A DNA stretch of 64,000 bases, taken from positions 66,772-130,771 of the forward strand of contig CAZHIA010000005.1 in NCBI GenBank assembly GCA_964532425.1, given 5' to 3'. Shown one piece after another: positions 2,625 to 60,288 of this stretch. The position numbers and the translations under genes were made by a program. Within the stretch, counting starts at the first letter, position 1. The number at the start of each line of letters is the position of its first letter. Origin of the DNA: an uncultured Candidatus Saccharibacteria bacterium (GTDB lineage Bacteria; Patescibacteriota; Doudnabacteria; UBA920). The notes beneath the pieces are model-generated. The model was given only the letters and a program-made list of their open reading frames with translations, made no database searches and was not told the origin of the DNA.

Positions 2625-4691
<2,067 letters not shown>

Positions 4692-4929: not shown

Positions 4930-6108
4930 CTACCTTAACTCCGCTTGATAGGTTTCCGCAGTCTGTTTGTACAGCTCATTTTGCAATGGCTCAACTTCTT
5001 CTGCCGTGAGAGTTCGTTCCGGGCTGCGGTAAATGACCCGGTAGGTGTAGCTCATACGGTCAGGTCCGAATTTGCCATCGTTTTCGTATTTATCAAGAAG
5101 CTCTACCTGTTCGACCAGGTCACCGCCTATGTGGCGGATGAGGTCAAAATAGTTATTGGGCACGAAGTCCTTTTTTACGATGAACGAAATGTCGCGAATT
5201 ACTGGCGGGAATTTGCTGACCTCGACGAATTTCTTGCCCATGTGCAGCTGTTTGGTCACCCGAGGGTCCTCACTCCAGAGCAGGCGGATATCCGGCAGAC
5301 TCATGCTGACTATGGCCAGGCGCTCCAGGCCAAAACCGAATGCCCACCCCGTGTAATTGGAAGAATCGACGCCAAGTTTTTCCAAGACTGATCCCTTGAC
5401 CACGCCGCAGCCGACGACTTCGACCCAATTGCCTTCTATTTCTACTTCCATTTCCAGGGAAGGGTCTGTATACGGGAACGTGTCGGGATTGAGACGGTAT
5501 TTTACCTCAGGCCCGAAAACAGCTTTGGCAATGGCTCCCAGAGCCTCTTCCAGGTCCTGTTGGCCCATGGTCTTCATGGCTTTCGGCACTAGGTACCAGC
5601 CATCAATTTGATGGAAGACATTCATGTGCTTGCGGTCTATTTCATCCTTGCGATAGACTTTGCCGAAACTGAACGAACCGACGGGTTGATTGTCCGCCAT
5701 GCGCTGTTTGACTGCTTCGTTCTGCAGATAGTAATACCACATAACGGTCGTGTGCGTCCGCAGGATATTGCTGTCGTCGACATAGTAGGTATCGGATTTG
5801 CTGCGTGCCGGATGGTCGGCAGGAAAATCGAACAGGTCAAAGCTGATATCAGCCGGAACAATCTCCGGAGTTTTGATAATATCGAGATCCTTAAAGTAGT
5901 CGCTTGCAAGAATCTTTTCGACGATTTCGGCGATAGGGCTGCCCGGGGTGCGCGAAAGATCGGGCATAGCAAGATACCGCCGGATGCGCTGAGCTTCGAA
6001 ATCCGTGCGCTTTTCGAGTTCTATTCTTAAACGCTGTTCCTCTTCCGTTGAAATGATGATTTCTGTTCTCATAAAGTATTCAAATTTACTTAATACATCC
6101 GGCGTCAT
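4930..6108 (-). CDS. pheS: phenylalanine--tRNA ligase alpha subunit
   Basis: Class II aaRS motifs: FPYTDPSLEMEVEI (motif 2 region) and GWAFGFGLERLAIV (motif 3). 392 aa. The alternative internal start MRTEII is at 6072. Confidence 0.9.
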   Translation of the reverse strand: MTPDVLSKFEYFMRTEIIISTEEEQRLRIELEKRTDFEAQRIRRYLAMPDLSRTPGSPIAEIVEKILASDYFKDLDIIKTPEIVPADISFDLFDFPADHPARSKSDTYYVDDSNILRTHTTVMWYYYLQNEAVKQRMADNQPVGSFSFGKVYRKDEIDRKHMNVFHQIDGWYLVPKAMKTMGQQDLEEALGAIAKAVFGPEVKYRLNPDTFPYTDPSLEMEVEIEGNWVEVVGCGVVKGSVLEKLGVDSSNYTGWAFGFGLERLAIVSMSLPDIRLLWSEDPRVTKQLHMGKKFVEVSKFPPVIRDISFIVKKDFVPNNYFDLIRHIGGDLVEQVELLDKYENDGKFGPDRMSYTYRVIYRSPERTLTAEEVEPLQNELYKQTAETYQAELR

Positions 6109-6212
6109 CCTGAACCCGACTGCAGCGGAGAGTGAAGCATCTCTTAAACTACTGGTTTAAGGGATTCTTCGTCACTCGGATGCACTCGCTCCTCAGAATG
6201 ACGCCGGATATG
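6098..6212. mobile_element. Roughly 110-nt palindromic element with terminal inverted repeats (atccggcgtcatcctga ... tcagaatgacgccggat), copy A.
   Basis: Near-perfect 17-bp TIRs. The right half matches the copy at 11217-11330 (40 of 43 nt). Its left TIR overlaps the annotated pheS start codon (ATGACGCCGGAT). Confidence 0.55.
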
Positions 6213-6243
6213 GTAGTATTTTACTTAACTTCACTTATCGCTG

Positions 6244-6699
6244 TCAATTTTGTTCAATCATCCCCGGCTCAAACTGGTTCCCCGGCTTGGTATCTGGTTT
6301 GAGTATCATTATCCCCTTCCCTGGCTCGCTGGAGAGTCCAAGCTCGAAGGCCGCGCAGATCATACCTTGGCTTTCCACACCGCGGATCTTGGCTTTCTCA
6401 AGGACAAACGGCTCATGGGCCTCGCTATGGATGTTCTGCGGGATCTGGGCACCGGGCAGGGCCAGGGCCACCATGTCTCCGACTTCAAAGTTAAAGGCGC
6501 CACAGACAACCGGGTATATTTCTTTTTCACCATCCGTCAATTGAACGACCTGCAGCCGGTCGGCATTGGGATGCTTTTCTATAGCTAAAACTCGGGCTGT
6601 AATAATGCCAGAGTAGTTATTTGTTGGGTTTTTAGCCGGTGTGTTTTTGAATAGTCTTTGAAAAAATGAAAATAATTCCATAAAATTGATAATTAACAA
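6244..6699 (-). CDS. stand-alone tRNA-binding (Myf / EMAP / PheT N-terminal-like) domain protein
   Basis: GIITARVLAIEKHPNADRLQVVQLTDGEKEIYPVVCGAFNFEVGDMVALALPGAQIP...KIRGVESQGMICAAFELGL matches the N-terminal tRNA-binding domain of PheT and CsaA/Trbp111. The rest of pheT is not at this locus. Confidence 0.75.
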   Translation of the reverse strand: MLIINFMELFSFFQRLFKNTPAKNPTNNYSGIITARVLAIEKHPNADRLQVVQLTDGEKEIYPVVCGAFNFEVGDMVALALPGAQIPQNIHSEAHEPFVLEKAKIRGVESQGMICAAFELGLSSEPGKGIMILKPDTKPGNQFEPGMIEQN

Positions 6700-8859: not shown

Positions 8860-11800
8860 TCATTCCAGATACTCAAATTCGCACCGGTGGTCCCTGGCTT
8901 TCTTATGCTCTTCCTTGAACAGGTCGTACTTTGTCGTATATGCGATCCGTTCAACAAGCTCCAAGAGCCGCTGTTTGAGATCGGTAATCTCTTTTTCCGG
9001 CGCGATCTCCTCTTCAATGAACGTATTATCTTGCAAGTACCAGTACTTCAAGCCGACGACGGTTTCTTTCAAGTATTCCTCGGCCGCCCATTGGTAAATA
9101 TAGAGCTGGTCTAAGTCCTTGCTCTTTTTCGGCGTCTGTCCGGTCTTGTAATCCAGGAGAATAATACCGTTTTGCACGCTGTCGGCACGGTCGATTTTAC
9201 CGGTAAATAGATACTCTCCCAGCTTCAGCTGGAAGAACTTCTCGATATATTTTGGCACGAATTTCGCCTGCAGGCTGGTCTCATAGAATGTGCCGAGCAT
9301 TTTCCTACCAAGCACGCGATATTCCTCTTTTTGTTCTTTTGTATCGTACCAGTCATCCACCCAATGCTTTTCATATAGTTCTTCCAGGAATTTCGCCGGG
9401 GGCAGCACCACCTCCGGTTTGCCGCCGAACAAGTCCTGCTGCGGCAGGTCGAGATTGGTTTTGTATAGTTTTAAATACTCTTCGAAAACTTTATGGATGG
9501 TCTGGCCGAAGCTTAAATGGCAGCTGCCGGCTACCGGTAGTTTGAGGTAATGATGATATTTGTATTTGAGCGGACAAGTTTCAAAATCGTTCAGCTGGGA
9601 ATAAGAATACTTGAGCGACGGCACATATATCTGCTTCCCCGGTTGCGCTGCGGGGCGGAACATGACTTTGCCGGTAGCCTGATTTACCCGGTCGCTGGGC
9701 ACCAAGCCGGTCTCGACCAAAAAGCTTGACGGCTTCTTGGCCCGGCTGCCGCCATAGTCCTTGGCCCAGGTCAAATAGAGATAGGTCTTGGCCCGCGTCA
9801 TGGCAACATAAAACAGCCGGCGTTCTTCCTGCAAATGGAAATCCCCTTCCGGAAGGATATCTTTGATCAGGGCTTCCGGAATCTCGATCGGATCGCTTTT
9901 TTCCCGCGTCGGAAACCGCTGGTCTACCATGCTGATGACAAAGACATAGTTGAATTCCAGGCCTTTGGAGCTGTGAACAGTCATGACTTTAACGCTTTCA
10001 GGACCAGCATTCGGATCGAATTTTATTTCACCTTCATTGCCGGCTTCCAGCTCCAAGTCCAGGGTGGCCAAAAAATTATGCATGCTTCGGTCAGTTTCTT
10101 CCTGCCCGAATTCTTCGATCTTTTTGTAGAATTGGTCTACCAGCTCGCGGTTTTCGGCGTTTTCCAGCGTGTCTTCGGAAATAACCTCTTCGATACCAAT
10201 ATCCTTCACAATACTCACGAACAGCTCAGCTGCATGTATGCGCCGGGCAGCATCGCTATGGGCATGGAGGCAATTAATAAGCCGTTCGATGCTTTTTCGC
10301 GACTCATCGCTGGTTTCCGGGAAGCTTTTCGCGTCTTTTAACGCTTCATAGAGCGTTAAGGCCTTTTTATGCCCGTGGGCTAGAATATGAGCGCGCTCGT
10401 CATGGGGAATGAAAAACTTCGGCAGCGTTAGAACGCGGTAAAGGCTGTGCGAATCATGAAAATTATCGAGCAAGCGGAGATAGGACAGTATATCAACAAT
10501 GATCTGTTTTTTGTATAAACCGCGATTAGCCACGAACGTGTACGGTATATTGCGGCTGCCCAGGACGGGCAGCAGCTCGTCAGCTGATGCGTTTCGCCTG
10601 AGCAGAATAGCAAAATCATTCCAGCTGCAGGAGGGTTCTGAATTCTTCAACTCCATAATCTTATTGGCTACGCAATTCAGTTCCGAACTTAAATCTTGCG
10701 CCTCCAGGACCTCGATAACTCCTTCCTGGGGGATGTTTGCGTGGAGTTTTTTTGACAAGTCTAACTTGGTCTCCAGCCGGTCCGGATTGTTTTTTTGGAT
10801 GAAATCATACGCCAGATCAAGGATATTTTGGCTGCTGCGATAATTTTCGACCAGCGTGATCTCAGACAGTTCCGGGAAATCCTCTTTCAGCTTCAAGATA
10901 TTGGAAACGCTCGCGCCGCGGAATTTGTAAATGGACTGGTCATCGTCGCCAACTACGGTCAAGTTTTGGCGCACCCCAGCCAGCAACTTCACCAATTCGT
11001 ACTGGGCATAGTTCGTATCTTGAAATTCATCGACAAGGATATATTTGAACTTATCCTGATAATATTTGAGAATCTTCGGCCGCTTTTTGAATAATGCCAG
11101 CGTGTAGTTGATAAGGTCGGCAAAATCCAAATAATTGTGGTCGATGAGTAATTTTTGGTAGGTGTGGTACGCACCAGCCAGCTCTTCAATGCGGGCGATC
11201 TCCACAGGATCAACGTCAACCGGCGTCATCCTGACGTTGAGTGCATCCGAAACGGAAGGATCTTTTTTGCTGACCCGAGATTCTTCGCCACTCGGATGCA
11301 CTCGCGACTCAGAATGACGCCTTTTGGAAGGAGGATTGATTTTTGTCTGAGCAGGCTGATCTGTTTGCAATCTAAGACCTTCGGCAAAACTCAAATAGTC
11401 TTCTGGCCCTATAAGTTCGTCCTTGCAGCGGCTGAAGTGAGAGAGCATCGCGTCGATGAACTTGGCAGGATTGCCCAGCGGCCGGTAATAGCTCAATTTA
11501 AATTTAGACAGGTTTTTGTAAACCAGGATCCATTGTCTGGTTGAGTCGAGGAGCGTGAAATCGTTGGGAATGCCGATGTCGAGGGCATGCATTTTTAAAA
11601 TACGCTCGCAAAAACCGTGGAAGGTCGCGATCCATGTGTCGTACGCCCCGATGGGCAACAGCAAGTCCACGCGCTCCTGCATCTCACCGGCCGCTTTTTC
11701 GGTAAACGTTAGGGCGGCTATTTCATCCGGCCGGGCAGCGCCGGTTTCCAGCAAATAGGCTATGCGCCGCGTAATAACGGTTGTTTTTCCGGTGCCTGCT

Positions 11801-11940
11801 CCTGCAACGATAAGTAACGGACCTTCGGCATGTTTAACCGCCGTAAGTTGCTGCTGGTTCAATCCTTCAAATAACCGGTTGTCCGTTGGCAGAGCCTGCT
11901 GTTCGGCAATATTGGGAGTTTTTGTTGCTTGTTTGACCAT
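8860..11940 (-). CDS. UvrD/PcrA-family SF1 helicase with a C-terminal PD-(D/E)xK (AddB/Cas4-like) nuclease domain
   Basis: Motif I LIVAGAGTGKTTVITRR and motif II ILVDEFQDTNYAQYEL. The C-terminal domain has YSYSQLNDFETCPLKYKYHHYLK ... GKIDRADSVQNGIILLDYKTGQ. 1026 aa, including an in-frame roughly 37-aa insertion encoded by repeat copy B. Confidence 0.85.
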   Translation of the reverse strand: MVKQATKTPNIAEQQALPTDNRLFEGLNQQQLTAVKHAEGPLLIVAGAGTGKTTVITRRIAYLLETGAARPDEIAALTFTEKAAGEMQERVDLLLPIGAYDTWIATFHGFCERILKMHALDIGIPNDFTLLDSTRQWILVYKNLSKFKLSYYRPLGNPAKFIDAMLSHFSRCKDELIGPEDYLSFAEGLRLQTDQPAQTKINPPSKRRHSESRVHPSGEESRVSKKDPSVSDALNVRMTPVDVDPVEIARIEELAGAYHTYQKLLIDHNYLDFADLINYTLALFKKRPKILKYYQDKFKYILVDEFQDTNYAQYELVKLLAGVRQNLTVVGDDDQSIYKFRGASVSNILKLKEDFPELSEITLVENYRSSQNILDLAYDFIQKNNPDRLETKLDLSKKLHANIPQEGVIEVLEAQDLSSELNCVANKIMELKNSEPSCSWNDFAILLRRNASADELLPVLGSRNIPYTFVANRGLYKKQIIVDILSYLRLLDNFHDSHSLYRVLTLPKFFIPHDERAHILAHGHKKALTLYEALKDAKSFPETSDESRKSIERLINCLHAHSDAARRIHAAELFVSIVKDIGIEEVISEDTLENAENRELVDQFYKKIEEFGQEETDRSMHNFLATLDLELEAGNEGEIKFDPNAGPESVKVMTVHSSKGLEFNYVFVISMVDQRFPTREKSDPIEIPEALIKDILPEGDFHLQEERRLFYVAMTRAKTYLYLTWAKDYGGSRAKKPSSFLVETGLVPSDRVNQATGKVMFRPAAQPGKQIYVPSLKYSYSQLNDFETCPLKYKYHHYLKLPVAGSCHLSFGQTIHKVFEEYLKLYKTNLDLPQQDLFGGKPEVVLPPAKFLEELYEKHWVDDWYDTKEQKEEYRVLGRKMLGTFYETSLQAKFVPKYIEKFFQLKLGEYLFTGKIDRADSVQNGIILLDYKTGQTPKKSKDLDQLYIYQWAAEEYLKETVVGLKYWYLQDNTFIEEEIAPEKEITDLKQRLLELVERIAYTTKYDLFKEEHKKARDHRCEFEYLE
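11217..11330. mobile_element. Roughly 110-nt TIR palindromic element, copy B, inserted in frame inside the helicase CDS.
   Basis: TIRs ggcgtcatcctga / tcagaatgacgcc, with an internal inverted repeat gagtgcatccga / tcggatgcactc. On the coding strand it encodes KRRHSESRVHPSGEESRVSKKDPSVSDALNVRMTP with no stop. Confidence 0.55.
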
Positions 11941-11975: not shown

Positions 11976-12437
11976 TCAGTGCTTCCCGTTACTGATAAAA
12001 CTCGTCCACTGCTTCCAGAGGTCCTCGCCTTCATCTTTAAAGGAGGACCAGAAAGCCGAAGGGTTGACTATCTTGACCCCTTGAAATTCTTCCAGTTTTA
12101 GCAGGGCATTATCGCTGCTCACCAGAAAGTCCGCCCGTGCTTCCACCGCGCTTTCGAGGATCTTATTGTCTTCGGGATCCTCGACAATGCGAATCTGGCG
12201 GCGATTGACCACCCAGTGGATCTTGGCAAACAGATCATCCAGCTGGTGGCGGTAATCATCATTGTCGATGAGCTGGGAAGCTATAAGTTTATTCTCCTGC
12301 AGGGTCTGGCGATTCGCGTAGGCCTCTATCTCTCCTGCCAGCACCGCATCGATGATCTTCTTTTCGTATGAGTAGTCGTCTTTAAAGCCGTTAATGAGAA
12401 CGTTGGTATCCAGGACTATCTTGGTAACATTTGACAT
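11976..12437 (-). CDS. PIN-domain protein (VapC-like putative ribonuclease)
   Basis: IVLDTNVLINGF ... DPEDNKILESAVEARADFLVSSD gives the PIN acidic residue pattern. The start codon lies inside a heptamer repeat block (MSNV = atg tca aat gtt). Confidence 0.8.
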   Translation of the reverse strand: MSNVTKIVLDTNVLINGFKDDYSYEKKIIDAVLAGEIEAYANRQTLQENKLIASQLIDNDDYRHQLDDLFAKIHWVVNRRQIRIVEDPEDNKILESAVEARADFLVSSDNALLKLEEFQGVKIVNPSAFWSSFKDEGEDLWKQWTSFISNGKH

Positions 12438-12457
12438 GTGACATTTGACCTTTGACC
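12426..12457. repeat. Heptamer repeat block (tttgaca, tgtgaca, tttgacc, tttgacc), left flank of the 4HB gene.
   Basis: 7-nt periodic TTTGAC units between the 4HB stop and the PIN start. Confidence 0.6.
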
Positions 12458-12465
12458 GCTTCCGA

Positions 12466-12852
12466 TTACTTCGTAGGGTTTTTTAATAGTACATCTCTAA
12501 ACGCAGTGAGTTGATCAGCAAGGTTTGCTCCTCTACTTAAAAATTCCTTGTGTTCTTCTTCATTAATATAATGATTATCTAAAGCGATATCTAAACAAGC
12601 AATAACTTCATTCAAAGAGGTATGCGATCTATTAAGAAATAGGGCGAAATCCTTATCGGTCCCTCTGTCGGATCCTTCTGCTATGTTAAGCAAAATCGAA
12701 TCCGCTGCGCGATACAGTTGGTTTGTTAAACTAAACAGTTCATATTGAGGAAAGTGGATCCTTGCTAGCTGTTTGACATCTATGACATATTTTCGGGCAT
12801 CCTGATAAACCGGAAAATTTCTAAATCGGAATTTTTTATCAGTGTTTCCCAT
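12466..12852 (-). CDS. four-helix-bundle protein (TIGR02436 / formerly 23S rRNA intervening-sequence protein family)
   Basis: FPVYQDARKYVIDV ... LTNQLYRAADSILLNIAEGS ... SLNEVIACLDIAL are family hallmarks. Confidence 0.8.
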   Translation of the reverse strand: MGNTDKKFRFRNFPVYQDARKYVIDVKQLARIHFPQYELFSLTNQLYRAADSILLNIAEGSDRGTDKDFALFLNRSHTSLNEVIACLDIALDNHYINEEEHKEFLSRGANLADQLTAFRDVLLKNPTK

Positions 12853-12885
12853 GTCAAATGTTAAAGGTTAATGGTCAAATGTTAT
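12853..12885. repeat. Heptamer repeat block in the opposite orientation (gtcaaat, gttaaag, gttaatg, gtcaaat), right flank of the 4HB gene.
   Basis: It abuts the 4HB ATG (aacatttgacATG on the coding strand). There is no SD. Confidence 0.6.
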
Positions 12886-13400
12886 CTTCTATTATTCTTT
12901 ATCGGCATTAAAAATTTTCGGGGATTATCGTCCAGGTCAATGAAGAAGTCCGTGAGTTCCTTGATTTTGCCGCTGCAGGACTTACCGAAAGCCACGGTTT
13001 CCGTAAGCTGGCCGGTCATCTGGAGGTATTCGAGCAGCGGGATAAAGTCCCCGTCGCCACTGCAGAGCACCACGACATCTAATTTGTTCATAAGCTTGAT
13101 GATGTCCATGGCAATGCCGACATCCCAGTCCCCTTTTTGGTGCCCGCCGGCGAAGGTTTGCAACTCCTTCATCTTTACTTCAAAACCAGCTTTCTCCAAG
13201 GCTTCAAAGAATGTATGTTCTTCGGGCATGTCGGCTTTGACCACATACGCGATGGCGCGGATCAGTCTGCGCCCGCCCACGGCCGAATCCAAAATCTCGT
13301 TAAATTTGACTCGTGCGTTATAAATATTACGCGCGCTGTAATAGAGGTTCTGAACATCCACGAATACGCCAACGCGCTGGTCGGGGTTTCTCATAGACAT
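12882..13400 (-). CDS. NYN-domain protein (LabA/YacP-like putative RNase)
   Basis: RVGVFVDVQNLYY ... DVGIAMDIIKL ... VVVLCSGDGDFIPLLEYL matches PF01936. Confidence 0.8.
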   Translation of the reverse strand: MSMRNPDQRVGVFVDVQNLYYSARNIYNARVKFNEILDSAVGGRRLIRAIAYVVKADMPEEHTFFEALEKAGFEVKMKELQTFAGGHQKGDWDVGIAMDIIKLMNKLDVVVLCSGDGDFIPLLEYLQMTGQLTETVAFGKSCSGKIKELTDFFIDLDDNPRKFLMPIKNNRR

Positions 13401-13428: not shown

Positions 13429-13929
13429 TTATTGACACAGGAATGGCTTAATGTAAGTCGAAATATCGTCACCACTTCCTACTTCGTCAATGCCATTCGG
13501 ACCGGCACTAAAAACCTGGTCGTTTCTGCAATCCGAAACTCCTGATTCGCGCTCATTCTCATCAATAAGGTACGGGGTTCCCCAGGGATCTTTGGGTGAT
13601 TGGGAGAATCCCAGCCTTTGCCAGGATGTTGCCAAGGCAGCCAAGCCAGCGGCATTGGCATTGACGAGCCCTGTGCCCCGGAAGACACAGTCAGAGCAAC
13701 CGCTTCCAGTAATTTGCAGCACGGTATTGTTATTGGTGGTTCTGGATAACTCGATCTGGGTAGCTATTTGGTGGAAATCAGCGTCAACTCTCGCGTACTT
13801 CGCCTTCTGCCGGGTATTATTCATAGCTACCAGCACAATGCTGGACAGTAACCCAATGACAGAAATAACGACCAACAACTCTATTAAGGTGAATCCGCGG
13901 CTATTTAGTTGAAACCGTACAATATCCAT
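13429..13929 (-). CDS. type IV pilin / pseudopilin (prepilin-type N-terminal cleavage/methylation domain)
   Basis: N-terminus MDIVRFQLNSRGFTLIELLVVISVIGLL is a class III signal peptide with G^FTLIE. Cys pair near the C-terminus. Confidence 0.8.
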   Translation of the reverse strand: MDIVRFQLNSRGFTLIELLVVISVIGLLSSIVLVAMNNTRQKAKYARVDADFHQIATQIELSRTTNNNTVLQITGSGCSDCVFRGTGLVNANAAGLAALATSWQRLGFSQSPKDPWGTPYLIDENERESGVSDCRNDQVFSAGPNGIDEVGSGDDISTYIKPFLCQ

Positions 13930-18486: not shown

Positions 18487-18563
18487 TGGCGGGGACGGCG
18501 GGGCTCGAACCCGTAACCTCTCGCGTGACAGGCGAGTGCTCTAACCAATTGAGCTACGCCCCC
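18487..18563 (-). tRNA. tRNA-Asp (GTC)
   Basis: GGGGGCGTAGCTCAATTGGTTAGAGCACTCGCCTGTCACGCGAGAGGTTACGGGTTCGAGCCCCGCCGTCCCCGCCA. Anticodon loop CTGTCAC, discriminator G73, encoded CCA. Confidence 0.9.
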
Positions 18564-18717
18564 GTATATTACGCTACTTTGGCCCTGAACCATTCCCCGC
18601 CTTCGGCAGATCAGGTACAAGGCATGAACCAGTCGCACAGCGTGCCGCCCACAAGAAACACTCACGAGCTTATGGCTGTGCCATGAACCGGAGCGAATCC
18701 GATGAGCGACTGGTTCA

Positions 18718-18794
18718 TGGTGCCGGAGAGAGGAATTGCACCTCTGACCTTGGGCTTATGAGTCCCACGCTCTAACTAACTGAGCTACTCCGGC
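18718..18794 (-). tRNA. tRNA-Met (CAT), elongator type. tRNA-Ile2 (lysidine) cannot be excluded.
   Basis: GCCGGAGTAGCTCAGTTAGTTAGAGCGTGGGACTCATAAGCCCAAGG...CTCCGGCACCA. Fully paired G1:C72. Anticodon loop CTCATAA. Confidence 0.85.
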
Positions 18795-18971
18795 CTGATT
18801 TTGCCAGTGTAGCCATTCATTTCTACGGCTGTTCAGCACAACGGTACAGCAGCCCGAATTTGCAGACTACATAAGCATTTTTTGATTTAAAAACCTGCTG
18901 GACAGCAGGAAAAGGCTGTCACGATAGGTATTTAATCAAGGCAGACTTCGATTTAAAATCAAAGGCTATCT

Positions 18972-19048
18972 TGGTTGCGGGACCCGGACTCGAACCGGGA
19001 ACCTCCAGGTTATGAGCCTGGCGAGCTGCCAAATTGCTCTATCCCGCG
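18972..19048 (-). tRNA. initiator tRNA-fMet (CAT)
   Basis: CGCGGGATAGAGCAATTTGGCAGCTCGCCAGGCTCATAACCTGGAGGTTCCCGGTTCGAGTCCGGGTCCCGCAACCA. C1xA72 mismatch. 5' and 3' ends are near-identical to E. coli tRNA-fMet. Confidence 0.9.
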
Positions 19049-23853: not shown

Positions 23854-24306
23854 TTATTCGGAGAGTACGCCTTCGCCCGTAATTGGCGTTCTGCGGTGAG
23901 CATGTTTGCGAGCTACATTGAGACGCATCAGGCTGTGTTCCAGACTGGCAGCAACCTTGGCGTACTCTTCAGCAGTTAAGGTTTCCTCTGCCATTGCCTT
24001 GCGTGCCCGCTCACGAGCAGCTTCGGCAGCATTGAGGTCTATCTCGAAATGATGTTCAGCCGCGTCTGCGAGAACAACAACTTCGCCGCCTTCGCGAATC
24101 TCGACAAAACCGCCGGCCACATAAATATAATAATCATCTTGCTCCGACTTGGCGTGAAGCTCTCCAGGGATGAGGTTCGCCACGAGCGGGATGTGACCGG
24201 GAAGAACGGTAATCTGACCCAGAGATGTCGGGCAGCTTAAACTGCTCAGCTCCTGGGAAAGTACCGTCCGCTCGGGAGTTACTAATTGGAAATGGAATGT
24301 TTTCAT
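23854..24306 (-). CDS. atpC: ATP synthase F1 epsilon subunit
   Basis: MKTFHFQLVTPERTVLSQELSSLSCPTSLGQITVLPGHIPLVANLIPGEL. Start chosen at the ATG at 24306. The track start at 24345 is a TTG lying inside a heptamer repeat block. Confidence 0.8.
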   Translation of the reverse strand: MKTFHFQLVTPERTVLSQELSSLSCPTSLGQITVLPGHIPLVANLIPGELHAKSEQDDYYIYVAGGFVEIREGGEVVVLADAAEHHFEIDLNAAEAARERARKAMAEETLTAEEYAKVAASLEHSLMRLNVARKHAHRRTPITGEGVLSE

Positions 24307-24312
24307 ATTCTG

Positions 24313-24400
24313 GACATTTAACATTTGACCATTGACCTTTGACAAATCATTGTCATTTTTGATTCTAAAATGGTCACATGTTACCTGTTAAAGGTCAAAT
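24313..24400. repeat. Heptamer (TTTGAC / TTTAAC / ATTGAC) repeat blocks in inverted arrangement in the atpD-atpC spacer.
   Basis: Left half in one orientation and right half in the other, giving a composite imperfect palindrome. Confidence 0.6.
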
Positions 24401-24401
24401 G

Positions 24402-25799
<1,398 letters not shown>

Positions 25800-29993: not shown

Positions 29994-30046
29994 CTATTTG
30001 TGAGGGAGTTTAAAGTCCCGTTGAGCGAAAAAATAATTATTATGAT

Positions 30047-30117
30047 GTCAACATTTGACACCTGACTTTTGACATTTGACCGAAAGGCCACATGTCAATG
30101 GTCAAAGGTTAAATGTT
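30047..30117. repeat. Heptamer TTTGAC-family composite palindrome in the atpB-atpE spacer.
   Basis: catttgac, ttttgac, atttgac on the left. gtcaatg, gtcaaag, ttaaatg on the right. Confidence 0.6.
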
Positions 30118-30126
30118 TGCAATTTG

Positions 30127-32140: not shown

Positions 32141-32216
32141 TGGAGCCGGCTGTCGGACTTGAACCGACCACCTGCGGTTTACGATACCGCTGCTCTACCA
32201 GATGAGCTAAGCCGGC
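32141..32216 (-). tRNA. tRNA-Thr (CGT)
   Basis: GCCGGCTTAGCTCATCTGGTAGAGCAGCGGTATCGTAAACCGCAGGTGGTCGGTTCAAGTCCGACAGCCGGCTCCA. Anticodon loop ATCGTAA. Confidence 0.85.
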
Positions 32217-48068: not shown

Positions 48069-48150
48069 ACATTTAACCTTTAACCATTAACATGTAACAA
48101 ATCCGCATTGTCCGAGTGTCTAGGTCAAATGTCAAATGTCACATGTCAAA
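48069..48150. repeat. Heptamer TTTAAC/TTTGAC-family composite palindrome between the DUF4012 gene and ftsW.
   Basis: catttaac, ctttaac, cattaac on the left. gtcaaat, gtcaaat, gtcacat, gtcaaat on the right. Confidence 0.6.
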
Positions 48151-48155
48151 TGTTT

Positions 48156-49295
48156 CTATAAGTTTGACTGCCGTGAAATATTCAGCAGAATACCTACGCC
48201 GGCCATGGATGCAATGAGGGCTGTGCTCCCGTAGCTGAAAAATGGCAGCGGAATACCGGTGAGCGGCAGCAGATTTACCATAGCGCCTATGTTGATGACA
48301 GCCTGGAATCCGATGTACGCGACAATACCAACTGCAATCATTTTGCCGAAACCATCCGGCGCGTTTTTGGCAATTTTGATTCCCCGCAGGACAAACGCGA
48401 CAAATAATAGGATCAGTATGGTCACTCGGAAGAAACCCAATTCCTCGGCCATAATGGCAAAAATAGAATCCGTGGTCGTTTCGGGGAGATAGTTATATTT
48501 TTGGCGAGAGAGGCCGTAGCCATACCCCCATAAACCGCCGGAACCGATAGCTAAAAGCGCCTGGTTTATCTGGTAGCTGATCCCTTTGGGATCGATAGCC
48601 GGGTTTAAAAATGTCGTAATCCGGCGCGCTCGGTAGGGCTCAAATTTAATAAATGCCGCGAGCGCCAGCACCCCGGTGACAATAGTCCAAAAAAAATACC
48701 GCAAATTAATGCCACCGACGAACAACATGACCATGGAAGTAACGATAAGCACGATCATGGTACCCAAGTCCGGCTGCCATAAAATGAAAGCCGCAAAGAG
48801 CCCAATAATCAACAGCGATGGCAGAACGCCGAAATAAAAGTCATTCATGGCATGTTTTTTCCGGTCCGCCCAGGCTGCCAGGTATAAGATAATGACAAGT
48901 TTTGCGAATTCGCCCGGCTGCACCGAAATAAAACCCAGGTCGAGCCAGCGGACAGCACCCCCGGCCGAATATCCCATGCCTGGCATTTTGACGAGCACCA
49001 GACTGACCAGGGAAACAATAATCAGTCCCGGAAGCAGCTTGAGCCAAATGTGATAATCCAAACGGCTGCAAATATACAAAGCCACAGCTCCAACGAGTCC
49101 ACCATAGACTGCCTGATGGATGATATAATACGTAATCGTGCCGTGATCCTTATATGACTGGACCGTAGATGCGGAGAAGAGCACCATAAACCCGTACACC
49201 AGCAGCGCCAGGGTAATAAGCAGCACCGGTAAATCAATTTTTCCGTTTTTTGCTTTTTTCATTTCAGGAAGATTATGTAACCTCGAATATACCAA
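48156..49295 (-). CDS. ftsW: SEDS-family peptidoglycan glycosyltransferase FtsW/RodA
   Basis: 10-TM SEDS topology. Alternative start MKKAKNGKIDLP at 49262. Confidence 0.85.
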   Translation of the reverse strand: MVYSRLHNLPEMKKAKNGKIDLPVLLITLALLVYGFMVLFSASTVQSYKDHGTITYYIIHQAVYGGLVGAVALYICSRLDYHIWLKLLPGLIIVSLVSLVLVKMPGMGYSAGGAVRWLDLGFISVQPGEFAKLVIILYLAAWADRKKHAMNDFYFGVLPSLLIIGLFAAFILWQPDLGTMIVLIVTSMVMLFVGGINLRYFFWTIVTGVLALAAFIKFEPYRARRITTFLNPAIDPKGISYQINQALLAIGSGGLWGYGYGLSRQKYNYLPETTTDSIFAIMAEELGFFRVTILILLFVAFVLRGIKIAKNAPDGFGKMIAVGIVAYIGFQAVINIGAMVNLLPLTGIPLPFFSYGSTALIASMAGVGILLNISRQSNL

Positions 49296-49317: not shown

Positions 49318-50727
49318 TCAGGAACGCGATAAATTCTTTACTAGTTCTTTAAAGCGTTCTCCCCTGTCTTTGTAATTTTTAAACATGCCGAAACTTGCGC
49401 ATGCGGGCGACAGCAGTACAACATCACCTGCTGTAGCAACAGAACGGGCTTGCCCGAGAATTTCTTCCATGGATGCAGCACCGGTCAGTACTTGCCCGTT
49501 AAATCCTCTTCCTTGTCCAAGCACTTCCCTGATCCGTTCAGCTTCCTGCCCTATGAGAATAACAGCTTTGATATTATGCGCCGAACGAATGACCTGTCCG
49601 AGCTCGGTAAAGTCGCTATGTTTGGTTGACCCCCCTAAAATAATAATCTCTGGTTCAGTAAAAGCTTTTATAGCGGCAATGGCTGTCTCAGGAACTGTAG
49701 AAAAAGAATCATTGTAGTATGCAACGCCTTCGTGGGCGCCAACCGGCTCAAGCCGATGTTCCAGCCCGGCAAAACTCTTAAGGACATCAGCCACCGCTTC
49801 CGGTTCGATGTCTAAGGCACCCGCTGCCGCGACCGCTGCGCAGACGTTCTCAAGATTATGACGCCCCTTCAGCTTAAGTTCATTGCATGGAAAGGAAAAA
49901 ATCCGTGGGAAGATTCCGACTGCGACCATTTGGTCCTGTTCGATAAAGCATCCCTCCCGCAGCTGTTCATGCGTGCTCACAGAAAGTTTCTTGTGAGCCT
50001 GCCCCATTTCACCAATGAGCCTGGTGGCGGGGTAGTCGATATTATAAATGGAAACATCTTCTCGCTTTTGATAGACCGTAAGCGAGCTTTTGGCAGCATG
50101 GTATTCGCGAATATGCCTATGTTGATCAAGATGCTCCTGGGTGACCATGAGACAAACCGCGATGTGAGGGCTTTTGTGCAGATCCTGAAGCTGGAAACTA
50201 GAAAGCTCGAATACCACTATATCGCGCTCCGTCATGTCATCCAAAAATTCGAACGGCTGGATCTTGCCGATGTTGCCGGTCAGGAACATTTGACCTTTGA
50301 CATTTGACCATTGACCATTCAACTTCAACATTTCATAAATAAGAGTGCTGGTGGTTCCCTTGCCTTTCGTGCCGGTCACTCCGACAATCTTACCCGGGCA
50401 GTGGTCAAAGAACCATTTGGTCTGGCTCGTGATTTTCAACCCCTTGTGTTCGGCCGCTAACAGATCAGGGTGCAGCCGCCATAGTCCCGGACTACGGAAG
50501 GCCGCGTGAAAGCCGGTAAGTTCTTTCAGACAGTCCGGACCGAAGATAAAATTGAGGTTGAGCGCTTTTATTTTTTCTTGTTCTTCCGGCGCCCATTGTT
50601 CCCACGGGCGCTGGTCAAAAAGCACGGGGGTAATGCCGTGCTTGAGCAAATATTCGGTAACAGCCTGCCCTTCGCGTCCAAAACCCAATACCGCGGTGAG
50701 TTTTTGATCCAAATCTTTGAGTTCCAT
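49318..50727 (-). CDS. murD: UDP-N-acetylmuramoyl-L-alanine--D-glutamate ligase
   Basis: Start at the ATG at 50727 (MELKDLDQKLTAVLGFGREGQAV). GVTGTKGKGTT is the Mur ligase P-loop. The track ORF extends further upstream through an overlap. Confidence 0.85.
   Translation of the reverse strand: MELKDLDQKLTAVLGFGREGQAVTEYLLKHGITPVLFDQRPWEQWAPEEQEKIKALNLNFIFGPDCLKELTGFHAAFRSPGLWRLHPDLLAAEHKGLKITSQTKWFFDHCPGKIVGVTGTKGKGTTSTLIYEMLKLNGQWSNVKGQMFLTGNIGKIQPFEFLDDMTERDIVVFELSSFQLQDLHKSPHIAVCLMVTQEHLDQHRHIREYHAAKSSLTVYQKREDVSIYNIDYPATRLIGEMGQAHKKLSVSTHEQLREGCFIEQDQMVAVGIFPRIFSFPCNELKLKGRHNLENVCAAVAAAGALDIEPEAVADVLKSFAGLEHRLEPVGAHEGVAYYNDSFSTVPETAIAAIKAFTEPEIIILGGSTKHSDFTELGQVIRSAHNIKAVILIGQEAERIREVLGQGRGFNGQVLTGAASMEEILGQARSVATAGDVVLLSPACASFGMFKNYKDRGERFKELVKNLSRS
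50286..50325. repeat. Heptamer TTTGAC block inside murD.
   Basis: On the coding strand tggtcaa atgtcaa aggtcaa is 21 nt. It adds WSNVKGQ between the conserved EMLK..G and GNIG. Confidence 0.6.
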
Positions 50728-58892: not shown

Positions 58893-58955
58893 AACATTTG
58901 ACATTTGACTTTCTGCGACCCAAGTCAAAGGTTAATGGTCAAACGTCAAATGTTG
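58893..58955. repeat. Heptamer TTTGAC-family composite palindrome between the TM protein and the ATPase gene.
   Basis: acatttgacatttgact ... gtcaaaggttaatggtcaaacgtcaaatgtt. Confidence 0.6.
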
Positions 58956-58959
58956 CCTT

Positions 58960-60288
58960 CTAAAAGTCTTCCGATACCGGCAAATTAATCGGCGCTGAGG
59001 CTTTCTTGCTCTCAGTCCGTTCGATAGGCACCGCAGCTGCGGTCGTCGAAATCGGGAAATGGTACAATGTAGCCAATTCCTCAACATTCATGACGAACAT
59101 GGGATTGCCAATATGCACATCACGGTTCTTATAGCCTTTAAACATCATAACCTTGCGGCGTTTTTCTTCCCATTCGATATACGGTTTTTCCAGCGTCGGG
59201 GAAATATGATATTCAAGGCTGGTCCAGGTCAGCTTAGTATCCGGCTTGAACGTGTTGGTATTGGCAGAGCCCAAAGGCCGGTACGAGCCGATGACCACGG
59301 ACTTCTTAGACCCGTCATATTTGTCCTTAGGCGCAATATATAAGTGGCGGATCTTAGTCCTGTATCCCGGTTTGCCAATTTTTCGCTGAATGAGATTGAC
59401 GCGCTCCTTCTCCATGTCAGTCATGCTTTGCCAGTTGTTCTTGGGGCCTTTTTCATCATGGCCATGACCATGACCGCCTCCTAAAAGGGCATCCTTAAAG
59501 CTAAAGTTCGCAAATGCGTTAAGCGGTGCAAGGAAAAAGTCACTCCAAGAAGCCTCATGCGCCACCGCTTCGCCAATCAACTCCTTCACCTTTGACTCCC
59601 CTTTCGGCTGCCATTCATTATCGCCAAGCGGTTGTATGATGATTTGCACCCCGTAAAATTCATGCGGACCGATCTTGGACAGTGCCTCAAAATGCGAGGC
59701 AAGAGGATCGATAACCTTTTCTTCCGCTACCGGATGCTCAAAATCTTTATATGTTTTGATAGGTATTACGTCGTCGGCCAATAGCTTATATTCGCAGCCC
59801 CAAATGTCAAAACTGCTGGTTTCTGGATCATAATTGATATTCTCCATGTAATCTTCAACCTGGGTAATTTCCGCCGTCGGATATTGCGCATAAAATGCTG
59901 CCTCGACCAGGTCCCTGGTCTTTTTTGGGCACATGATTAAAAACGAGATCTTGCCGCCCATGCTGATGATCTCCAGGCTGTACCAAAGTTGGTCCTTGCC
60001 TTCCACATATTTTTGAGCGAATGTTATCCCGGTATGGAGCGCGTGCATCTGGGCGAAAATCGATTCTACCGCGAGTGTACTGACCAAATTTTCTTTCGGA
60101 ACTTTGATGTTCAAGAAAATCCATTCCTGGCTATGAATGAACTGGTGCTGAATCTCTCCCATATACAGCCAGAACAGGATCCGAACAGTTACGAGAACGA
60201 CCAAAACCCAGCCTCCATACAAGAAAAAAGAGGCTGTCGTTCTCAGCAGATCCCCAACATTTGGGAAAATTCCCTGGAAAATATCCAT
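58960..60288 (-). CDS. hypothetical membrane protein (442 aa, N-terminal TM)
   Basis: TM FFLYGGWVLVVLVTVRILFWLYM. Its end is 114 nt upstream of the coupling-ATPase-like gene, co-oriented. Confidence 0.55.
   Translation of the reverse strand: MDIFQGIFPNVGDLLRTTASFFLYGGWVLVVLVTVRILFWLYMGEIQHQFIHSQEWIFLNIKVPKENLVSTLAVESIFAQMHALHTGITFAQKYVEGKDQLWYSLEIISMGGKISFLIMCPKKTRDLVEAAFYAQYPTAEITQVEDYMENINYDPETSSFDIWGCEYKLLADDVIPIKTYKDFEHPVAEEKVIDPLASHFEALSKIGPHEFYGVQIIIQPLGDNEWQPKGESKVKELIGEAVAHEASWSDFFLAPLNAFANFSFKDALLGGGHGHGHDEKGPKNNWQSMTDMEKERVNLIQRKIGKPGYRTKIRHLYIAPKDKYDGSKKSVVIGSYRPLGSANTNTFKPDTKLTWTSLEYHISPTLEKPYIEWEEKRRKVMMFKGYKNRDVHIGNPMFVMNVEELATLYHFPISTTAAAVPIERTESKKASAPINLPVSEDF

Follow-up and report, generated by a model that had tools for sequence, protein, structure and literature searches.

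The repetitive extragenic palindromic sequences (REPs) that carry a CGTC tag were brought together as a superfamily by Di Nocera, De Gregorio & Rocco (BMC Genomics 2013, PMC3733652). In these elements an unpaired tag, CGTC or alternatively TGTC or CCTC, is attached to a stem of 8-9 bp that starts with A-T and T-A pairs, encloses a loop of 4-5 nt and is followed by a CCA tail. They are mostly arranged as head-to-head dimers, often heterodimers, which can fold as one large stem-loop. The superfamily is found in several phyla, five of which were listed in 2013, is without a dedicated transposase and includes two of the Rickettsia palindromic elements (RPEs), namely RPE-4 (CGTC-4) and RPE-6 (CGTC-1). 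Copies have been reported inside UvrD/REP helicases and tRNA synthetases, and many of the copies that appear to lie at the N-terminus of an open reading frame (ORF) are really extragenic, with translation starting downstream, as judged by shorter homologs (PMC3733652). Here we describe a palindromic element, termed copy A, that lies upstream of the gene pheS in a stretch of 64,000 nucleotides, referred to throughout as the window, from an uncultured Candidatus Saccharibacteria bacterium (GenBank assembly GCA_964532425.1, contig CAZHIA010000005.1, positions 66,772 to 130,771). It is highly probable, at about 0.85 in our estimation, that copy A is a non-coding, REPIN-like dimer of inverted REP hairpins from the CGTC-tagged superfamily or a close variant of it, and that pheS starts beyond the element, at the ATG at window position 6072.

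Structure and distribution of the element

Copy A is a palindromic element of 113 bp at window positions 6097-6209. The original prediction had placed it at 6098-6212, and the element itself is borne out, with its coordinates off by 1-3 nt. The inverted ends of 17 bp that had been described are also present, as ATCCGGCGTCATCCTGA at 6097-6113 and the inverted partner TCAGAATGACGCCGGAT at 6193-6209, with one C/T mismatch between them; only 13 nt of each arm, GGCGTCATYCTGA, are shared across the family. The family core accordingly spans 6101-6205, and the outer ATCC/GGAT, which is confined to copy A, forms a copy-specific extension of the stem. This extension is local, because among 42 copies the palindrome beyond GGCG...CGCC was no longer than in controls. 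A second copy in the window had been predicted as well, and copy B is indeed found at 11218-11325, with its family core at 11222-11321, in frame within an ORF for a UvrD/PcrA-type helicase-nuclease (8860-11940, minus strand).

The end motif, with up to 3 mismatches allowed, occurs 4 times in the window against an expectation of 0.36, and none of 100 shuffles reached 4. Long-hairpin folds on both strands of copies A and B have predicted energies of -53 to -58 kcal/mol (z = -6.8 to -8.9), and a hidden Markov model built from 40 copies of other genomes matches only copies A and B in the window, with E ~1e-19. The excess of end motifs, the fold scores and the model matches together indicate that the observed element is real.

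Copy A is composed of two CGTC-tagged, REP-like hairpins that meet head to head. The beta half (6103-6143, plus strand) consists of the CGTC tag at 6103-6106, the stem arm ATCCT at 6107-6111, a GA dinucleotide, an interior of 20 nt, a second GA, AGCAT at 6136-6140 and the tail CTC. A self-complementary spacer and apical loop, TTAAACTACTGGTTTAA, occupies 6144-6160. The alpha half (6161-6203, minus strand) carries its CGTC tag at 6203-6200, followed by the stem arm ATTCT, GA, an interior of 22 nt with the box GAGTGCATCCGA, GA, AGAAT and the tail CCC. Both halves of copy B are also tagged, and both window copies are head-to-head dimers that are predicted to fold as one long hairpin. With Rfam release 15, the element was unmatched at the gathering threshold in the window and in 18 loci from four phyla; at a permissive threshold the best match in a 500-nt region was to a microRNA model, with 28.5 bits against a threshold of 50, which is expected for any long hairpin. 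A tRNA-like cloverleaf, or RNA gene with a four-way junction, was also considered and was dropped once the pairing within each half had been recognized as the stem of a REP monomer.

The wider family was collected with the pattern GGCGTCATYCTGA-N65-95-TCAGRATGACGCC in one genome per species, with perfect ends and dimers required. This pattern is found at no fewer than 118 loci, in Sphingomonas, Acidobacteriota (Terriglobia), Patescibacteria, Hymenobacter, Bradyrhizobium, Caulobacteraceae and an Actinomycetota metagenome-assembled genome (MAG). Among the matches listed, the Patescibacteria encompass Doudnabacteria and MAGs labelled Saccharibacteria, and several copies often come from one genome. 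The full pattern gave zero matches in IMG/VR viral contigs, and thus no evidence of carriage by phages.

The copies follow a modular plan, GG-CGTC-ATYCTGA-interior-GAAGRAT-tail, succeeded by a spacer and then by the inverse of a second such unit, and the tag is followed by AT in every copy. In Patescibacteria the Y of each end pairs with the R of the same half: 18 copies combine a T-A half with a C-G half, 15 show the same on the other strand, 3 have C-G in both halves and none has T-A in both. Hence 33 of the 36 scorable copies are alpha/beta heterodimers, within a collection whose pattern selected dimers. Pairing of these positions across the halves would give a wobble and a mismatch, and the variable side stems of 3-5 bp are likewise complementary within a half; each half is therefore a hairpin in its own right. 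The complement of ATYCT is present within the same half in 75/84 Patescibacteria, 45/52 Sphingomonas and 84/112 Acidobacteriota halves. The Sphingomonas half has the canonical form, running from CGTC through ATCCTGAA, a 5-nt loop and TTCAGGAT to CCA, with a stem of 8 bp; ATCCT and AGGAT are separated by 11 nt, made up of three stem pairs and the 5-nt loop, in 43 of 52 halves, and 35 of 45 halves carry the CCA tail. In Patescibacteria the stem is made of five Watson-Crick pairs, then GA/GA and one G-C pair, and the interior is built around a conserved box, GARTGCATCYGA, with GAAGRAT as the 3' arm.

Certain spacers harbour the element in several genomes, the resident copies varying in orientation and interior. 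At these recurrent sites the flanks are 84-86% identical, and the interiors about 65% identical over aligned columns. One set of orthologous spacers holds a copy in each of three Patescibacteria genomes (L038:5803-5903, L065:5115-5220 and L080:906-999), with interiors and alpha/beta order differing among the three, and a further pair of spacers is occupied at L065:2852-2952 and L080:3442-3536. Upstream of the copy, at a distance of 7 nt, two of the three genomes show a partial end-like motif, TTGACGCC/TTGACGCT. These spacers could represent a hot spot or could simply retain old copies.

Some copies reside within coding sequence. Copy B encodes about 36 residues, ..KRRHSESRVHPSGEESRVSKKDPSVSDALNVRMTPV.., in a hypervariable linker of the helicase, and this segment is without counterpart in the closest orthologs; two more distant helicase orthologs contain other palindromic inserts at the same spot, read as ILRFAQDDS and VIPTVREES...SVRNDK. 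Approximately 10 of the 42 perfect-ended Patescibacteria copies are in frame within long ORFs, and the hosts confirmed by Pfam include LeuRS, YchF, MnmA, Lgt, CarA, TatD and a GT4 glycosyltransferase. By analogy, this in-frame residence corresponds to the behaviour of the Rickettsia RPEs. In the tiny genomes of Patescibacteria around a quarter of the perfect-ended copies lie within the reading frame of a housekeeping gene, as is also the case in Rickettsia.

The start site of pheS

On the minus strand, a gene for a tRNA_bind-domain protein (6244-6699) is followed by a spacer of 171 nt, by pheS and by gyrB (4688-2625). The mechanical ORF for pheS (4930-6108) is 392 residues long and opens with the minus-strand ATG at 6108-6106, which lies in frame within the repeat end; its product would begin with the 12 residues MTPDVLSKFEYF and continue with MRTEIIIS.... 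The original prediction had taken this Met-Thr-Pro-Asp reading to be the annotated start of pheS, and had offered two accounts of it, that the element had been exapted as the initiation region or that the true start was the downstream ATG at 6072, with the element in the 5' untranslated region. The first of these is not supported. The deposited protein that is 100% identical, from NCBI and Logan, has 380 residues, starts with MRTEIIIS and is the sole deposited form; the form of 392 residues was not found in a collection of around 15 billion proteins.

Comparison of N-termini favours the same downstream start. Among the best 120 PheS orthologs (75-100% identity), 108 start 33-36 residues ahead of a conserved MPDLSR motif, and none of the 120 contains the MTPDVLSKFEYF extension. 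In the window protein this motif is found 35 residues from ATG 6072 and 47 residues into the long ORF. Folding of the 5' region agrees with the comparison: the upstream ATG (6106-6108, minus strand) is fully paired in the predicted hairpin, with an unpaired probability of 0.00 in the predicted ensemble, whereas the start region at 6072 has a predicted accessibility of 0.5-0.6, compared with 0.64 for a version from which the element has been removed in silico. The sequence comparisons thus place the start of translation at ATG 6072-6070, 36 bases past the ATG of the element, and the coding sequence judged to be correct (4930-6072, minus strand) specifies 380 residues, MRTEIIIS..., with the catalytic core and an FDX-ACB domain. 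The element had been described as overlapping the pheS start codon, yet copy A ends 24 nt short of this one.

The origin of the spurious ATG lies in the construction of the repeat. The junction of tag and stem, CGTC-AT, reads AT-GACG when reverse-complemented, so that the ATG is formed by the reverse complement of the last tag base and the first two stem bases. Because this junction is invariant in the family and the heads of the dimer face outward, an outward-reading ATG ACG CC is found at both ends of every copy. At pheS the ATG of the element lies by chance in the reading frame, and no stop codon intervenes ahead of 6072, which creates the 12-codon extension; no exaptation is needed to explain an ATG that is a by-product of the junction. 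The original observation that ATG ACG CCG also occurs inside copy B is correct; it is read in the helicase frame as ..VRMTPV... This MTP and the reading LRMTPGEN-MSFKIG..., found upstream of YchF at locus L115, both follow from the same outward ATG ACG. In a related genome (L005) PheS has been called as a protein of 410 residues (P0044) straight through the element, reading ..TQNDAAFCKFMSQNIIIS, and gene callers have been misled there in the way shown by the mechanical ORF of the window pheS. The window locus is exactly the situation of the published extragenic copies at apparent N-termini. For annotation, this means that genes downstream of CGTC-type repeats are prone to false N-terminal extensions, via the outward ATG ACG at each end.

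The spacer itself identifies the element as an addition. In the closest relative, with 86% PheS identity, the syntenic spacer (L002/L003) is 59 nt long and has no element, and removal of the 113-nt element from the 171-nt spacer of the window would leave 58 nt; copy A is therefore an insertion and not part of pheS. In L005, whose PheS is 78% identical, this spacer contains a longer copy that shows an additional nested hairpin, the opposite alpha/beta orientation and a different interior. A nested perfect hairpin, GTCCCGCGGAGCGGGATCCCGCTCCGCGGGAC, is found inside one half of some copies (L005:2947-3075 and L005:6948-7066), which points to insertion of another small palindrome into the box of the original one. 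In one relative, L113, the tRNA_bind gene is separated from pheS by an inserted type IV pilin-like gene (1164-1730, N-terminal methylation motif GFTLIELLVV), and the element occurs just downstream of pheS instead (2923-3013).

A promoter-like site, TTGACA-18-TAAAAT, with 11 of 12 consensus matches, is found at 6218-6247 on the minus strand, where it overlaps the stop codon of the tRNA_bind gene. Its predicted transcription start site (TSS), at about 6211, coincides with the 5' edge of copy A. At the corresponding position, relatives show extended -10 sites that are weaker.

The PheRS of the window is of the single-chain type, combining a class II core (PF01409) and a C-terminal FDX-ACB domain (PF03147) in 380 residues, an architecture known from mitochondria, and no separate beta subunit is encoded nearby. 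Thousands of similar proteins are found in Patescibacteria; a literature search on monomeric PheRS in this phylum returned nothing. Some relatives (P0029, P0062 and P0083) have the tRNA_bind protein and PheS joined in a single fusion protein of about 505 residues. The closest named relatives of both PheS and the helicase are Candidatus Doudnabacteria, and no near-identical strains were present in the protein collection.

Alternative explanations and possible effects

Several observations weigh against the assignment of copy A to the CGTC-tagged REPs and against the downstream start. The conservation of the ends is partly built in, as the search pattern demanded perfect ends, and the CGTC tag, though present in all 127 collected copies, was required by that pattern. 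The Patescibacteria interior spans 18-33 nt against the published loop of 4-5 nt, the tails are CTC (61 of 75) or CCC (8 of 75) rather than CCA, and at positions 6-7 of the stem within each half GA stands opposite GA, which is not Watson-Crick pairing. In the beta half of copy A itself, AGCAT has one mismatch to AGGAT. The predicted minimum-energy fold of the Patescibacteria copies is the long hairpin that pairs across the halves. Recurrent occupancy of spacers could reflect selection for a local function, the promoter at 6218-6247 is a consensus match only, and the downstream start in this uncultivated organism is predicted from sequence.

That the end of the element supplies the real start of pheS, and that PheS carries the 12-residue extension, is very improbable. 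The ATG at 6108 is in frame without a stop before 6072, neither candidate start has an obvious Shine-Dalgarno sequence, and Rickettsia proteins with an N-terminal RPE-1 are expressed (PMC3733652); but the ortholog starts, the deposited form and the buried ATG described above all speak for ATG 6072, the invariant junction accounts for the upstream ATG without any selective explanation, and a gene caller was misled in the same manner in the 410-residue call at L005. Equally improbable is a dedicated cis-regulatory RNA of pheS, such as a leader, an attenuator or a T-box-like element, that senses the status of Phe or tRNA-Phe. Copy A is highly structured and lies directly upstream of an aminoacyl-tRNA synthetase gene, in its probable 5' untranslated region, and a second genome also has a copy in its pheS spacer. 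However, Rfam gave no match at either threshold, the closest relative lacks the element at the syntenic site, the copy at L005 is opposite in orientation with a different interior, no terminator-like run of T follows, and the same element lies within the helicase ORF and in numerous unrelated settings across phyla.

The original label of an element with terminal inverted repeats suggests a classical miniature inverted-repeat transposable element (MITE), that is, a deletion derivative of an insertion sequence that is moved by a DDE transposase acting on the terminal inverted repeats. Inverted repeats of 13-17 bp, a length of about 100 bp, multiple copies and variable presence at orthologous sites would all fit. 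A direct repeat of 9 nt, TTAAGTAAA, also brackets copy A (minus-strand reading, 6228-6220 and 6093-6085) at distances of 10 and 3 nt; since repeats of at least 7 nt occur in 7% of unrelated flank pairs used as controls, it is probably due to chance in AT-rich spacer DNA. A MITE is nevertheless quite improbable, as no target-site duplication was detected across 42 copies (mean direct repeat in the flanks 4.83 nt, against 4.81 nt in controls) and, among host-genome pieces of 8 kb that total about 0.9 Mb, no long or autonomous element bounded by the family ends was found. The ends are moreover the heads of two inverted REP hairpins and pair within the halves, as is typical of REP monomers, and the published CGTC family is without an associated transposase (PMC3733652).

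Co-option of the hairpin at this site is rather unlikely. REP and ERIC hairpins can stabilize or insulate flanking mRNA. Such effects on the stability of flanking mRNA are also discussed for REP and ERIC hairpins in PMC3733652, and copy A might similarly stabilize the pheS mRNA from its 5' terminus, or insulate pheS from the tRNA_bind gene or partially terminate transcription between the two. Transcription from the predicted promoter would begin at the hairpin's edge, the pheS spacer is occupied in two genomes and other spacers are occupied repeatedly. Against this, the closest relative manages without the element, and orientation and sequence differ between the two occupied pheS spacers. A broader version is unlikely: that Patescibacteria maintain an active lineage of CGTC REP dimers with an expanded, box-containing loop, mobilized by some enzyme or by some process of the host, and that the copy at pheS has been co-opted as a hairpin at the 5' terminus that sets mRNA stability. 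It also takes in the 13-nt ends, which are common to at least four other phyla, and the recurrent occupation of the same spacers and of the coding sequences of essential genes (helicase, LeuRS, YchF and MnmA, among others).

If copy A is a REPIN-like dimer of the CGTC-tagged kind, as we favour, its place at the locus may be outlined as follows. The tRNA_bind gene and pheS are separated by a spacer that would otherwise measure about 58 nt; copy A lies within it, probably at the extreme 5' end of the pheS mRNA. Should the promoter at 6218-6247 be used, the pheS mRNA would consist of a hairpin of about -58 kcal/mol, then 24 AU-rich nucleotides and then the start codon. The transcribed copy would be expected to fold and bury its own ATG, leaving the real start free. 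Any effect on pheS would most likely be generic, of the type associated with REP and ERIC hairpins, through mRNA stability or insulation of the cistron rather than through control specific to pheS. Such an effect, including the influence on pheS translation that the original prediction had proposed, is hypothetical, given that the closest relative is without the element, the copy at L005 is inverted and the modelled accessibility of the start is unchanged.

Neighbouring features and relationship to known repeats

The window also contains a second, unrelated family of repeats, with arms of 32-42 nt that are rich in TTTGAC/ATTTGAC. An inverted pair of these arms, at 12417-12458 and 12853-12885, flanks an ORF (12466-12852, minus strand) for a four-helix-bundle protein of the 23S rRNA-intervening-sequence type (Pfam PF05635, E = 1e-26), and the gene with its bracketing arms looks like a small mobile cassette. 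Further sites with TTTGAC arms are found at 2907-2948, 24304-24405, 30041-30119, 48123-48157, 50276-50319 and 58894-58960; they include back-to-back pairs without a gene between them, and one arm lies within the gyrB ORF, where it is read as 11 residues. Other neighbouring features, all on the minus strand, were recorded at 11976-12437, 12882-13400, 13429-13929, 18490-19048 and 32144-32216. Among them are proteins with a PIN_3 domain and with an NYN domain, as well as a pilin-like protein that bears a methylation motif at its N-terminus; four tRNA genes are also present, three of them clustered.

Copy A is an ordinary representative of a known superfamily, for which false N-terminal extensions have already been documented, in a phylum that had not previously been listed. 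A repeat superfamily without a known transposase now extends to Patescibacteria and Acidobacteriota, and the persistence of such similar ends across phyla is a question raised by the family as a whole, to which the single copy at pheS adds no testability. Patescibacteria were unmentioned in the literature searched, including a survey of REPs from 2025, and searches on palindromic elements in Patescibacteria and on MITEs in the candidate phyla radiation returned nothing relevant.

Among the published families the closest is CGTC-2. Back-translation of the Sulfurovum CGTC-2 peptide RHSELVSGS (PMC3733652) gives CGTCATTCTGAACTCGTTTCAGGATC, the same half as in the present copies, and the peptide may be compared with WRHPELVSGS in one of the in-frame copies. 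The ends CGTCATYCTGA, the CGTC tag at the head, the A-T and T-A start of the stem, the arrangement as head-to-head heterodimers and the lack of target-site duplication are all held in common with CGTC-2. In contrast, the Patescibacteria loop of 18-33 nt around GARTGCATCYGA, often with an extra side stem, the GA/GA step and the CTC or CCC tail are not, and neither Patescibacteria nor Acidobacteriota were among the five phyla of 2013. Because the loop and tail differ from those of the published families, the element is, on the basis of its sequence, filed as a variant of the CGTC-tagged kind and not as a member of CGTC-1 to CGTC-4.

The likeness to other systems is one of organization. The REPINs mobilized by REP-associated tyrosine transposases (RAYTs) (Bertels & Rainey 2011, PMC3116915) similarly consist of two inverted REP hairpins and a spacer, fold into a hairpin some 100 nt long and are non-autonomous; they too reach tens to hundreds of copies, are mostly intergenic and lack target-site duplications (PMC3116915). 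Classical REPINs differ in their GTAG tags and in having a cognate, single-copy RAYT flanked by REPs, none being known for CGTC REPs, and they are lineage-specific, whereas the ends of the present family are common to several phyla. The Rickettsia RPEs are likewise palindromic repeats that persist within the reading frames of housekeeping genes, where they lengthen tolerant surface or linker regions by 30-40 residues, but their stem sequences are different and their hosts are obligate intracellular Alphaproteobacteria rather than Patescibacteria. The bacterial interspersed mosaic elements (BIMEs) of E. coli, with their pairs of Y and Z REPs, also join unlike, inverted REPs. The E. coli BIMEs, the enterobacterial ERIC and the Correia elements are transcribed intergenic hairpins that are able to alter the stability or processing of neighbouring cistrons. 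The sequences of all three are unrelated to the element described here, and the Correia elements of Neisseria have TA duplications and carry promoters.

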